The notes beneath the pieces are model-generated. The model did no database searches. It saw only the letters and a program-made list of their open reading frames with translations, and was not told where the DNA came from. From positions 18,290,001 to 18,354,000 of the forward strand of contig OX597832.1 of assembly GCA_951406725.2 (NCBI GenBank): DNA of 64,000 bases. The letters run 5' to 3'. Shown one piece after another: positions 17,565 through 48,522 of the stretch. The number at the start of each line of letters is the position of its first letter. The stretch's first letter is position 1. This DNA is from Octopus vulgaris (Eukaryota). Made by a program: the position numbers and the translations under genes.

Positions 17565-17740
17565 AGATCGTTAGCCACTACACACATTTTTTCTCCCCTT
17601 GTTTTTTCTATGTCCCTTACTGTAGAAGAGCGCAGGCTCGAAACGTAAAATACTTTTCTAATCCCGAGCGTTATACTAATACATCTGTTTTTTTGTACAC
17701 CACCTGTCTTCGTGTTTTGTTTTTTTCGTAAACTGTCCCT
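17565..17740 (+). mobile_element. ~180-bp non-coding element with HHR-like motif (family H1)
   Basis: CTGTAGA-A-GAGC-GCAG-GCTC-GAAAC-GTA at 17620-17647; homologous (reverse complement) to 19219-19408 and 48376-48522; abuts (TA)n. Confidence 0.8.
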
Positions 17741-18989
17741 ATATATATATATATATAAATAATCACTGTAATCCAACTTTTATTCGCAGGCGCACATACA
17801 CACATAGAGTGAGGAATGGAGTGAGACAAGAAAAGGGACAGACAGACAGAAGGAACGGATGGACATACCACGTTATACTTCTTCGTTCTTTCCGTATACT
17901 TCAGTCTCTTTTGCTCCCTCTCTCCCAATCTCTCTCTTTCTCTCTCACTCGTTCTCTCCCTCGTTCCCCCTCTCTTTGTAAATATGTATAAATAATATAT
18001 ACTGCAAAACATATATACGTATATATGCGTGTCTGTGTATGCATATATATAGCTATGCATCTATCCATACATCCATTTTTCAATATGTATATATATGTAT
18101 GCATATATGCATACATATGTGTATAAATATATAGACATTTATGTATATATGTGTGTATGTATAAATATCTATCTATCTATATATATATATATATATATAT
18201 ATATATATATATGTATACGTATATACATAAATTCATATATACATATATATACATATGTATATATATATATATATATGTATATATATATATATATTTATAT
18301 ATATATATACATACATATATATATGTATATACATGTGTGTGTGTATATGTATATATGTATGTATGTATACAAAAAGCTTGTGCGCTTATGTGTTATTCAG
18401 AGTGTGTTTATATTTCCGTTAGCGCTCGGGTATAAGTGTGTTTGTACGCGTAAATACCAGGGAACATATGCGTGTGATTGCAAACCAAATCGATTGTTGT
18501 GCAGTGTACACATCCAGTATGTTGCTATCCACTAAAAAAAAAAAAAATACAATCGGATCCAATGGCGCGCTATAAAGCGCACGTGAGTGTGTGCTGGGGT
18601 CAAAAAATAATACAAGAAAACAAAAAAAATAAAATAAAAGAACTATTTATTATAAATACAAAATGCAAAAGAGCTCTTAGAAGCAAATGCATTAAAGCAG
18701 CCTAATGTGAAACAACGGAAATTGTCTTGAAGTGTTATCGACGTAGATTTTCATGGAGAAGAGCCAGGCAGAAAGTTAATGCATTAACATATTTGTCCTT
18801 AGACACACAGACAGATAACACCAATTATGAACACACAGATCATCTCACACAACTTTAGATAAGTGCGTGGATGATGCATATATACACATATATATATATA
18901 AATACATGTGTGTATATATATATATATATATATATATATATAGAGAGAAAGAGAGAGAGAGAGAGAGAGAGAGACAGAGAGAGAGACTG

Positions 18990-19088
18990 AAGGAGTGGCT
19001 GTGTGGTAAGTAGCTTGCTTACCAACTACATGGATTCAGGTTCAGTCCCAGTGGATTTGGCAGACGGAAACTGAAAAAGCCCCTCGTA
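18990..19088 (+). mobile_element. SINE family B, 5' part (internally deleted)
   Basis: AGGAGTGGCTGTGTGGTAAGTAGCTTGCTTACCAAC...GGTTCAGTCCCA...GACGGAAACTGAAAAAGCCCCTCG. Confidence 0.85.
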
Positions 19089-19218
19089 TATATATATATA
19101 TATATATATATATATATATATATATATATATATGTGTGTGTGTGTGTGTGTGTGTGTGTGTGTGTGTGTGTGTGTGTGTGTGTGTGTGTGTGTTAGTGTG
19201 TGTATGTATGTATATATA

Positions 19219-19408
19219 AAGGGAAAGTTTACGAAAATAAACAAAAGACGAAGGGAGGTGGAGTACAAACAAACAAATGTATTAGTATAGCGCTCAGTAT
19301 AGCGTCTTTTACGTTTAGAGCCTACGCTCTTCGACAGAAAGATACACAGAAAAAAAGCAAGGAGAGAAACAAGTAGAGAAGAAAAATGCGTGTAGGAGCA
19401 AACGATCT
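19219..19408 (-). mobile_element. Family H1 element with HHR-like motif
   Basis: Minus strand 19342-19305: TCTTT-CTGTCGA-A-GAGC-GTAG-GCTC-TAAAC-GTA-AAAGA (stem I TCTTT/AAAGA); flanked by TA-rich tracts. Confidence 0.8.
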
Positions 19409-44585: not shown

Positions 44586-44879
44586 TGTGGAGGCGCAATG
44601 GCCCAGTGGTCGTAGGATCGCGGGTTCGATTCCCAGACCGGGCATTGTAAGTGTTTATTGAGCGAAAACACCTAAAACTCCACGAGGCTCCGGCAGGGGG
44701 TTGGTGGCGATCCCTGCTGTACTCTTTCGCCACAACTTTCTCTCACTCTTTCTTATGTTGGCCTGCTCGCTTAGCCAGCGGGGTGGCGTCATTTGAAAGC
44801 TAAAACAATGCGAAGCGCATTGTGACCAGCGATGTGTAGCAACATCTGATAGCCTTGTCGGTCACGATGATCACGGTGA
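44586..44879 (+). mobile_element. tRNA(Arg)-like SINE family C, tail type 2
   Basis: TGTGGAGGCGCAATGGCCCAGTGGT...GGGTTCGATTCCCAGACCG; body as in 10146-10537; different tail (GGCCTGCTCGCTTAGCCAGCGGGGTGGCGTC...GGTCACG). Confidence 0.9.
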
Positions 44880-46220
44880 TATATATATATATATATATAT
44901 ATATAGAGAGAGAGAGAGGGAGAGAGACAGACGAACAAAGAGACAGATAGATTGATAGATAGATAGATACATACATGCATACATTCATAACACACATACA
45001 TACGTATATAAATAATAGCAGAAAATGTACCGTTGTGTTTGAGAACGTGAAACGTCTATACTCGGGATTCAAACAGCCATATTGGTGAAACGTAAGTCGG
45101 AAGTAAGAAAGAAACATATACGCATCCTTATTTGCTATAAACGTACATACACACACATATACATAGGCGGTCAAACATAAATATATCAATTTGCATGTAT
45201 ATATATATATATTGTCACCCGGTAAAATTTTAAAGTTTAAAGGATTTCGACTGTAAAATTTAACCAAAATTTTGTTTATGTTGTTTATGCGTGGTTTATT
45301 TTAAGTTGTTTATGTAATTATCGAATATCATATATATACTGCCTCTATGTACACATGTAATTTATTTATAAATTTGTGTATGCATGAGCGTATATGTGTG
45401 AATGTGTATATGTATGATTGGAGAAGTGTATATATACGTATATTACTATGTGATGTTTTGTGCAAGTCACTCTCATACAATTACATCTCTTTAATTTTGA
45501 ATGTAATGGATTCTCTTGAAATATATGCATACATATATGTATATATATATATATATATATACATACATACACATATATATATGTATATATATATACATAT
45601 ATATTTATATATATATATACATGAGCACACATAAATACACAGGTACATATATATATATATATATATATATATATATATATATATATATATATATATATAT
45701 ATATATGAGAGGAGGAAGGCAAAAAATATACAAAATTAAAATATAATTCAATGCGTTAGATATTTTATATTTTCTTATTACTTACGTTGAATACATATAT
45801 CTTGTGATATCCCGCTAAACAATAATCAAACCGAACATCAAATATTTAAATGTTGTACACATTGAAGCGACCATCATTTTGATAACTGAATTCTCATAGA
45901 AAGACACAGGGAAAAATTGAAGAAGATATATATTTGAAGAAGAAATAGATAGATAGATAGATAAATAAGTAGATAGATAGATACATAGATAGATTAACAA
46001 GATAGAGAGCAAGAGGTATGAGTGGGTTGATTGTAGAATATAAACGGAATCGTAAAGCTTGTGCTGTTTTTGTATTCATACTTACGCTTATGCATTAATT
46101 AATTAAATTTTCATAATTTTCAACAGGATGTTTATTGGATAATCTCATTGAATTATTTTCCCAAAAACATCCCTCATATGAAAATATTAACAGTGTACAC
46201 ATTTGCCGATTATATTACTT

Positions 46221-46560
46221 CAATAATAATAATAGTATTAATAATAACGATGATGATGACGATGATGATGTTGATGATAATGATAATAATAATAATAATA
46301 ATAATAATAATAATAATAATAATAATAATAATAATAATAACAATAACAATAATAATAATAATAATAATAATAATAATAATAATGATAATAATAATAATTA
46401 AAATAATAATAATAATAATAATAATAATAATAATAATAATAATAATAATAATAATAATAATAATAATAATAATAATAATAATAATAATAATGATAATAAT
46501 ATTAATGAGGGTAATGATGATGACGATGACGATGATGATGAAGATGATGATAATAATATA
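46221..46560. repeat. (TAA)n/(TGA)n trinucleotide array
   Basis: Direct inspection. Confidence 0.95.
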
Positions 46561-48375
46561 GACGACATCAATACTTCTAAAGATATTTGATATATTTTAT
46601 TAATACCATAGCATTTTTATTTATATTTATATAATTATTTTTGTTCATTTTGCATGTTTTTGTGTCTTTGTTTTTTGGGTTTTTTTAAATTTTTTTTTGG
46701 CTTATCACTTAACCGCTTAAGCAATTCCTGATAAAAGTATTACTTCTTGTTTTGCATTTTTAATTTTTGGTAATTGTATGAGAATGTAGTCTAGTGGAAA
46801 GAATATTATGAATTTGGCTACAATTCTCGTTTCGTTTTAGAGTACAAAACGTCATCAAGAGAGAAATTATTCTTTTTTTATTTTTATTTTTGTTATTAAT
46901 ATTACATTTTATTTTTACGTTTGTTTTATTATGTTTTGTCACATTGTTCTTTTGGTGTCTTCAATGATTTCATTCATATATTAATTTTATTTTATGCCTT
47001 TTATTACGCTGGTCTTGTTTTGTTTATTTTTATTTTTGCGCTCGCATTTTATTGGAGTGCTTCTAAAATAATCATAATATTCGTAGTTATGATAGCTAAT
47101 TGTAAATAACTCCATTTCACTAACACTATGGGATATTTAGCAGAGCTTTTGTAAGGAAAAGCGGAGAATTGAGCAAAAATGCTTCAATACATCGGAAATT
47201 AATTTATACATACGTCTTTAACACCATATAGACGTGTGTGTTAATTGCGTTATATATATATATATATATATATATATACATGCTTCCAAAACCGAACATA
47301 TACGCAGATTTGCACAAACACGCATTAACTTATAGAAAAACGACAATAATTACAACGTCATAAGAGTAACATGTAGGTGTGTGCATATGGGTACACTGTT
47401 GAGTAATAGGGTAAACAAATATATGTAACTAGGTGTATATATATATATTTATATGTTTATGATATGTAAACATATTTATACATGTATAGTGTACATATAT
47501 ATATGTATGTATACATACAGAGACACGCACACGCACACACATATATAGACATACATTTTCTGAATATATACATGTTTATGTATATATATATATATATATA
47601 TATATATATATATATGTGTGTGTGTGTGTGTGTGTGTGTGTGTGTGTATACACACATATGTTAGTGTTTATTTAAATATATTATCATACACACGCTGAAC
47701 GACAAGTTTCATGAAAATTAAAATATGTGGGGGAGATCTAACGGCTGTCGCTTGTACACATACCCACAGTCATATGTATGTATGTGTACGTATATATACA
47801 TATATATGGTATGTATGCATATGTTTGTATCCATAGAACTATACAATTAACACGCACAGGCGCACATGTATAGTTACATGCACTTATATACGTATATATA
47901 TATATATATATATATATATTACGCAGTGACTTGTGTTCGAAAGTGTGCTTGCGTGCATATGCGTATGATATCATTGAGTTCAAAGCAGATCATCTAATTA
48001 TTTAATGACTTTCAACTCGAATTTTCAGAACCATTGCTCAATATACTTATAAATATTTTCAGACCCAAAATACGCCGAAGAAGAAGAGTATCTGAAAGGA
48101 AGTCTTGGTAATGAGTGCAAAAACATGCCAAGTTCGCTAATAAAGTATGCGTGTGCGTAGGTTTTTGTGTATGAATATATGAATGTATGTAAGCATCTAT
48201 CTATCTATCTATCTATCTATCTATCTATCTATCTATCTATCTATCTATCTATCTATCTATCTATCTATCTATCTATCTATCTATATATCTATCTATCTAT
48301 CTATCTATCTATCTATCTCTCTCTCTCTCTCTCTCTCTCTCTCTCTCTCTCTATATATATATATATATATATAAC

Positions 48376-48522
48376 CGGAAGGTTTACGAAAATAAGCAAA
48401 AGACGAAGTCAGGTGGAGTACAAACAAACAAATGGATTGGTATGGCGCTCAGGAATAGAAATAGAACAAGTCTTTCACGTTTCAAGCCTACTCCTCTTCG
48501 ACAGAAAGATACACAGAAAAGA
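48376..48522 (-). mobile_element. Family H1 element with HHR-like motif
   Basis: Minus strand 48509-48471: TCTTT-CTGTCGA-A-GAGGAGTAGGCTT-GAAAC-GTG-AAAGA; homologous to 19219-19350. Confidence 0.8.

Follow-up and report, generated by a model that had tools for sequence, protein, structure and literature searches.

H1 is a high-copy repeat family whose hammerhead motif carries U at core position 6, where the canonical core has A. We describe it from a 64 000-nucleotide stretch of Octopus vulgaris DNA (contig OX597832.1, positions 18 290 001–18 354 000; hereafter the window). The family consists of dispersed non-coding elements of roughly 190 nucleotides (nt), in which a pyrimidine-rich leader precedes a minimal type I hammerhead and some 90 nt of tail follow it. 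Among the contigs at least 80 per cent like copy 2 of the window, U6 is the family consensus and not a product of decay. By its layout and its closest relatives, H1 is probably a non-autonomous derivative of the 3' end of a Penelope-like element (PLE).

Three copies of H1 are present in the window, at the positions and on the strands proposed in an earlier note made from this sequence. Their pairwise identity is 78–82% (BLAST), and their local alignment scores (153–207) compare with a maximum of at most 41 in shuffled sequences. All three are solo, without tandem units. The features are as follows.

17565–17739, plus strand: complete H1 copy 1, (TA)n following
17615–17652, plus strand: hammerhead motif of copy 1 (C3 at 17620, U6 at 17623, A7, cleavage-site base at 17647)
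19218–19408, minus strand: H1 copy 2, whole element, flanked by (TA)n on both sides
19343–19408, minus strand: pyrimidine-rich 5' part of copy 2, resembling the U-rich stretch upstream of metazoan PLE hammerheads
19305–19342, minus strand: hammerhead motif of copy 2 (C3 at 19337, U6 at 19334, unpaired A at 19330, U16.1 at 19311, A17 at 19310)
19342–19338 paired with 19309–19305, minus strand: stem I of copy 2
19329–19326 paired with 19321–19318, minus strand: stem II of copy 2
19313–19312, minus strand: palindromic CG of copy 2
19218–19304, minus strand: 3' tail of copy 2, ending 92 nt past the cleavage position and meeting (TA)n family-wide
48376–48522, minus strand: H1 copy 3, 5'-truncated, then (TA)n
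48471–48509, minus strand: hammerhead motif of copy 3 (C3 at 48504, U6 at 48501, G17 at 48476)

Hammerhead positions are numbered according to the core given in PMC7151607. Relative to the canonical core C3 U4 G5 A6 N7 G8 A9, H1 departs at A6 only, and the U found there by the earlier note is present in all three copies (17623, 19334 and 48501). On the other side of the core, the canonical G12 A13 A14 A15.1, U16.1 and H17 are all found: the population majority has G12 (91–98%) with A17, and the U12 of copy 2 and the G17 of copy 3 are private lesions. H1 also displays the hallmarks of minimal hammerhead ribozymes (min-HHRs), namely an unpaired base between A9 and G10.1, the G10.1–C11.1 pair that follows it, a palindromic 15.2–16.2, a short stem I (five base pairs in copies 2 and 3) and a U-rich leader. 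The pairing probability of stem II is 0.99–1.0. The CG palindrome, without stem III, is present in all four related elements of the window, that is, the three H1 copies and a distant relative, c4, described below.

The damage differs from copy to copy, as the earlier note had observed. Copy 1 has A7, an altered loop II and, as read from the sequence, only two of the five stem I pairs, with stem II intact. Copy 2 has U replacing G12 (19317) and a short deletion past stem I. In copy 3, G17, a 1-nt insertion disrupting stem II and the 5' truncation are accompanied by an intact stem I. The description of stems I and II as intact is therefore correct for the consensus and for copy 2, but not for stem I of copy 1 or stem II of copy 3.

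A relaxed hammerhead descriptor gave two matches in the window, against 0, 0, 0, 1, 0 and 0 in shuffles. There is no Rfam hammerhead match for copy 2, yet there is none either for four coral loci with A6 used as positive controls; none was found in the window among the best 150 of 374 Rfam matches. A pair between U6 and A13, which would close off an extended inactive hairpin, has a probability of 0.01, and this possibility was rejected.

The status of U6 in the family was established from contigs of four of 24 public runs, which come from four studies and bear the organism labels A, B, D and A; the contigs were aligned to copy 2. One of the runs, X1, possibly comes from the same source as the window. 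The comparison covers contigs with at least 80 per cent likeness to copy 2, which leaves out more distant relatives such as c4, and variants are listed from a threshold of 3 per cent. In the four runs, 7907, 8821, 6009 and 1947 contigs were aligned, which makes H1 a high-copy repeat. The family also occurs in run X14, whose RNA nature is a guess, and this is not taken as a sign of transcription. At position 6 (19334), no letter but U reaches 3 per cent in any run. The neighbouring lesion of copy 2 at 19317 provides an internal control: G12 accounts for 91.3, 93.8, 97.3 and 98.2 per cent of the depth, overruling the U of copy 2. The only other variants listed within 19305–19341 are a change of G12 to A (2–8%) and one base of loop II (1–14%), and the ten remaining core positions are all at consensus.

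As many as 14 differences in about 80 bases were tolerated, so a form differing by the single base A6 would have been seen. Since the private lesion at G12 is overruled while position 6 stays U, we conclude that U6 belongs to the family consensus. The claim of the earlier note that the change is family-wide thus survived the check for a canonical consensus. Summed contig depth presumably under-counts private mutations, given the way in which contigs are built, and favours shared letters; the result therefore describes the consensus of the master or of subfamilies, and is not a count per copy.

Copies 1 and 2 begin at the same 5' position, and the start of c4 lies at a comparable distance. Depth drops 3.5- to 7.8-fold just beyond 19409 in all four runs, and no continuation past this position is found among the best-supported loose ends listed. 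Loose ends at 19341, the outer edge of stem I, are well supported, showing that a second upstream version exists in the population; others occur at 19356. Those at 19297–19307 are due to the deletion of copy 2 and to two distinct spacers. At the 3' side, all four elements of the window end at (TA)n, compared with 11 per cent of window positions, and the 3' loose ends of the population (at 19211) are (TA)n in all four runs. A bias for (TA)n has been reported for Neptune and Naiad PLEs.

The distance from the cut site (position 17) to the end of the element is 92, 92 and about 100 nt in copies 1, 2 and 3, respectively. In the PLE of Anolis, complementary DNA (cDNA) synthesis by the reverse transcriptase (RT) is initiated at a separate stem-loop, 85–92 nt beyond the cut site (PMC11167929). 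The agreement is no more than suggestive, that PLE belonging to another clade.

In runs X1 and X4 (window 19210–19430), a few contigs contain the ends of two co-oriented H1 copies, the 5' end of the one being linked by (TA)n to the 3' end of the other. Their depth is 28–86, against about 200 000 at the 5' end, hinting at rare head-to-tail H1 pairs that might be a source of dimers. H1 has no LINE-like (long interspersed nuclear element) tail and no transfer RNA (tRNA)-like head by eye, and ARAGORN predicts no gene in the window. No remnant of a PLE open reading frame (ORF) was detected in the window by tblastn or with a profile built from 23 PLE proteins (best E 0.57). The pyrimidine tract ahead of the core resembles, by eye, a splice acceptor. 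A recent annotation of Octopus vulgaris lists 190 Penelope-like families, amounting to 6.83 per cent of that genome, and makes no mention of hammerheads.

Preferential conservation of the stems, which the earlier note had expected, was not found among the window copies (Fisher p = 1.0 for all three H1 pairs); between copies 1 and 2, for example, 32 of 38 positions match in the motif and 101 of 120 in the flanks. In comparisons of motif and flanks against c4, p is 0.10–0.71, and p < 0.05 is reached in none of six pairs (lowest 0.097). Neutral decay after insertion predicts no advantage of the motif over the flanks, so these figures say little about the master. In the population, on the other hand, the core is the deepest block in three of the four runs, with core-over-tail depth ratios of 1.62, 1.53 and 2.73, which gives weak support to the view that subfamilies keep the motif while their flanks change. 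The outcome of this check is mixed.

The family profile of H1 found exactly one further element in the window, which the earlier note had not placed in this family:

25195–25400 (approximate), minus strand: c4, a distant H1 relative with the same layout and (TA)n at both ends

It is 72–79 per cent identical to H1 over the aligned columns. Its core is CCGACGA, with C4 and with A6 at 25317, and its stem I is altered on both sides (GUUU/AAAC), i.e. compensated. c4 serves as an internal outgroup and shows that lineages with A6 coexist with H1 in this genome.

More distant relatives were sought in metagenomes with a degenerate pattern in which positions 4, 6 and 7 were left open; at least 120 loci matched, and the counts below concern the matches listed. 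There are 103 AT-rich loci with U16.1, and all of them have A6, H1-like stem II arms and the sequence GAAA-CG-U. Twelve matches without A6 were taken as chance; all lack U16.1 and 11 lie in GC-rich DNA. No H1-like locus is among the matches. Remnants of PLE ORFs accompany 16 of the 120 loci. Of the 12 non-duplicate remnants, 10 have their best match on the strand of the motif and eight end 96–106 nt upstream of it. At one locus the end of an ORF is present; full-length relatives of this ORF, named from corals, contain RT, PF26215 and GIY-YIG domains. The metagenome motif is nearly identical to the published Neptune hammerhead of Acropora digitifera (Cervera and de la Peña 2014; Fig. S3, PMC4209133). 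In that figure all 56 representative motifs have A6, which the descriptor used by its authors demanded. Among the 120 matches, 50 cores are CTGACGA and 47 are CCGACGA (two or three of the latter being chance matches), and U4C is thus a common natural variant in coral Neptune-type hammerheads. Many of the coral-type copies also have an inverted partial copy just upstream.

Apart from U6, the core and both stem II arms of H1 match the coral Neptune motif. According to the description of the Acropora min-HHR (PMC4209133), the two have in common a short stem I, an extra unpaired A before G10.1, the G10.1–C11.1 pair, a stem II of four base pairs, a CG palindrome replacing stem III, a U-rich leader and dispersed solo copies. 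H1 differs in having U6 instead of A6, A17 instead of C17, another loop II, another tail and no ORF. Covariation in stem I is seen when H1, c4 and the coral motif are compared (six sequences): five cells are altered on both sides, a result obtained in 1/500 shuffles, and slid controls gave at most three. These comparisons support both a hammerhead origin and the Penelope-like link suggested by the earlier note. The succession of leader, hammerhead and tail in H1 is best read as that of a PLE 3' end (pseudo-long terminal repeat, pseudo-LTR), most like the Neptune type. As both the coral Neptune motif and c4 have A6, U6 is a derived change within one lineage.

Three other systems may be compared with H1. 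The non-LTR retrozymes (Li, Clavereau and Pollet 2026, bioRxiv 10.64898/2026.07.22.740005; PMC7229834) are likewise described as small non-coding units with a type I hammerhead, derived from PLE pseudo-LTRs and moved in trans; they are defined by tandem units with a complete core, whereas the H1 copies of the window are solo and have a non-canonical one. The A6C variant of phage Bcep176 (PMC3088659, PMC7151607) is, like H1, a natural change of position 6 that leaves the other core bases untouched. It is C6 at a single phage locus, whereas H1 has U6 fixed in a high-copy animal repeat. The Poseidon PLE of Anolis carolinensis, PAc (PMC11167929), resembles H1 in its AT-rich targets and in the place of its hammerhead, about 90 nt before the insertion ends on the 3' side, but it is autonomous, with a cleavage-competent core and an ORF that begins within the hammerhead; H1 lacks an ORF and carries U6. 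H1 thus has neither the A6 of a canonical min-HHR, nor the tandem units of a retrozyme, nor the ORF of an autonomous PLE. In the literature searched, neither a natural A6U hammerhead family nor H1 itself is described; Repbase and Dfam lie outside that search, and H1 is possibly catalogued there.

On this basis, the explanation that we consider probable is that H1 is a non-autonomous PLE 3'-end element whose master RNA was deprived of most of its self-cleavage by A6U, yet went on being copied in trans into (TA)n. The change from A6 to U would have arisen once in the master RNA, before the organisms labelled A, B and D diverged or before H1 became dispersed among them, and would have reduced self-cleavage to a low level. 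A PLE reverse transcriptase-endonuclease would still bind H1 RNA and copy it in trans, because cleavage would not be required for insertion; the enzyme would nick AT-rich DNA and begin cDNA synthesis about 90 nt past the hammerhead. Each inserted copy would then have decayed neutrally, acquiring its private lesions. The hammerhead would be either a relic that is still almost intact or a folded RNA segment to which the protein binds, rather than a working nuclease.

Published work on catalysis and insertion is consistent with this scheme. The PLE protein of Anolis nicks AT-rich DNA and starts cDNA 111–118 nt into the ORF, and PLE RNAs with catalytic mutations of the hammerhead insert normally in vitro (PMC11167929). 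In a mutational scan of one hammerhead, all single and double mutants of CUGA had low activity except the C3–G8 swap (PMC9901934), and changes of A6 are reported to break hydrogen bonds of the core. Metazoan min-HHRs are described as weak even with A6, and as inactive in the form of monomers. By analogy, the H1 motif probably cuts poorly or not at all. The function of hammerheads in PLEs has been called unclear (PMC8557442).

Several observations weigh against this explanation. Coral Neptune copies are seldom found beside (TA)n (3/84), and their tail has no evident likeness, by eye, to that of H1. The core-over-tail depth ratio is 0.74 in the fourth run. The intact state of the other core positions fits continued selection on catalysis no less than a single recent change. 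Cleavage by the Anolis PLE hammerhead requires the presence of its protein (PMC11167929), and the A6C variant, slow in Mg2+, cleaves at 0.3 per min in 1 mM Mn2+ (PMC3088659, PMC7151607). Finally, the autonomous PLE with the H1 motif, whose existence the earlier note had envisaged, was not found in the window, the metagenome matches listed, viral contigs, prokaryotic genomes or the supplement of PMC8557442, and its part as partner is therefore postulated. Scans with the H1 motif pattern gave no match in viral contigs and none in prokaryotic genomes; the Naiad/Chlamys/Hydra supplement of PMC8557442 contains no match for seven short H1 motifs, although its line breaks could mask one, and no link to the Naiad elements of octopus was detected there.

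The alternatives differ in what they ascribe to U6 and to the unit as a whole. It is possible, though doubtful, that U6 was selected, the fold being kept either as a protein- or Mn2+-gated ribozyme with an undescribed core, or as a silenced fold still bound by the Penelope protein. Selection would favour silencing because the motif sits in the middle of the unit, so that cutting would halve the template; if true, H1 would exemplify, in nature and across a genome, how a ribozyme can become a recognition structure. That U6 is simply a working variant of the core, whose cleavage is slow, dimeric (through the CG palindrome) or assisted by PLE protein or Mn2+ and matters in the cycle, seems to us unlikely. 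It would fit with all other catalytic bases being at the population consensus, with the Mn2+-dependent activity of A6C and the protein dependence of the Anolis hammerhead cited above, and with the tolerance of Neptune-type elements for C4 (38 of 85 distinct AT-rich loci among the matches listed; 37 counting CCGACGA alone). A nearest-neighbour model, which does not describe the catalytic fold, adds a weak point in its favour, the open-core fold rising with U6 from a share of 0.04 to one of 0.11; the model does not separate this variant from the relic. The low activity of CUGA mutants, the disturbed hydrogen bonds and the feebleness of metazoan min-HHRs even with A6 all speak against it, however; no compensating change is visible in the core, and no pile-up of ends is listed (a weak point, from contigs only). 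Of the two readings put forward by the earlier note, that of a structure no longer needing catalysis is accordingly better supported (PMC9901934, PMC11167929) than that of an active variant.

The copies could also be 5'-truncated 3' ends of an autonomous PLE bearing U6, without a separate non-autonomous master. Most animal min-HHRs are single motifs described as probably related to truncated PLEs, H1 fits the succession of untranslated region, hammerhead and tail in coral Neptune, where the ORF stops about 100 nt before the core, and copy 3 is indeed truncated. The shared 5' start of copies 1 and 2, the similar start of c4 and the sharp loss of depth past 19409 without listed continuation make this improbable. 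More improbable still is a short interspersed nuclear element (SINE) moved by another retroelement and carrying a PLE hammerhead as passenger, with U6 as a neutral founder mutation: such chimaeras do occur, since another repeat of the window (63269–63490) joins a tRNA-like head to a PLE-type hammerhead, but H1 has neither such a head nor a LINE-like tail and its layout fits a PLE 3' end. Local decay or chance, in a family whose consensus would be the canonical CUGANGA, is hardly credible. It can appeal to the decayed state of all three copies and to A6 in related elements of the window, but it is refuted for contigs at least 80 per cent like copy 2, where only U passes the 3 per cent threshold in four of four runs while the control lesion is overruled by more than 91 per cent; the excess of descriptor matches over shuffles also disagrees with it.

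The window is microsatellite-rich animal DNA with several other repeats. The repeat at 63269–63490 (plus strand) has a tRNA-like head (A-box-like by eye; no gene according to ARAGORN), an (AAT)n linker and, at 63395–63441, a PLE-type minimal hammerhead with a stem I of five and a stem II of six base pairs, a CG palindrome, A6 kept and G5 changed to U. It is possibly a tRNA-headed SINE with a Penelope hammerhead tail. A long inverted repeat at 30781–31509 (self-alignment of 742 columns at 87 per cent) ends in a (TA)n run and may represent either a foldback element or the insertion of a retroelement in truncated, inverted form. A fragment of metazoan signal recognition particle (7SL) RNA at 33402–33563 (plus strand; model positions 94–254; 58 bits, under the gathering score) is probably a pseudogene or part of a SINE. 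The segments 11229–11597 and 11612–11981 form a direct duplication of about 370 bases with 99 per cent identity. At 58348–59344 (plus strand) there is a C-terminal fragment of LINE ORF2 with a zf-RVT match, and similar DNA is found at 21035–21259; its best named homologue is from Argonauta hians (59% identity; eight matches, one with an organism name). Finally, an abundant repeat of about 230 bases, probably a SINE family, occurs at 2115–2352, 54704–54941, 60135–60361 and some ten more places with 70–91 per cent identity.

A high-copy family with a fixed core change, beside relatives that keep A6, constitutes a natural experiment on the need of PLEs for self-cutting. If the H1 hammerhead is dead, mobilization without cleavage would be shown in nature; if it cleaves, the range of permitted cores must be widened. 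Because descriptor searches requiring CUGANGA would miss U6 families of this kind, the published counts of animal hammerheads may be low.

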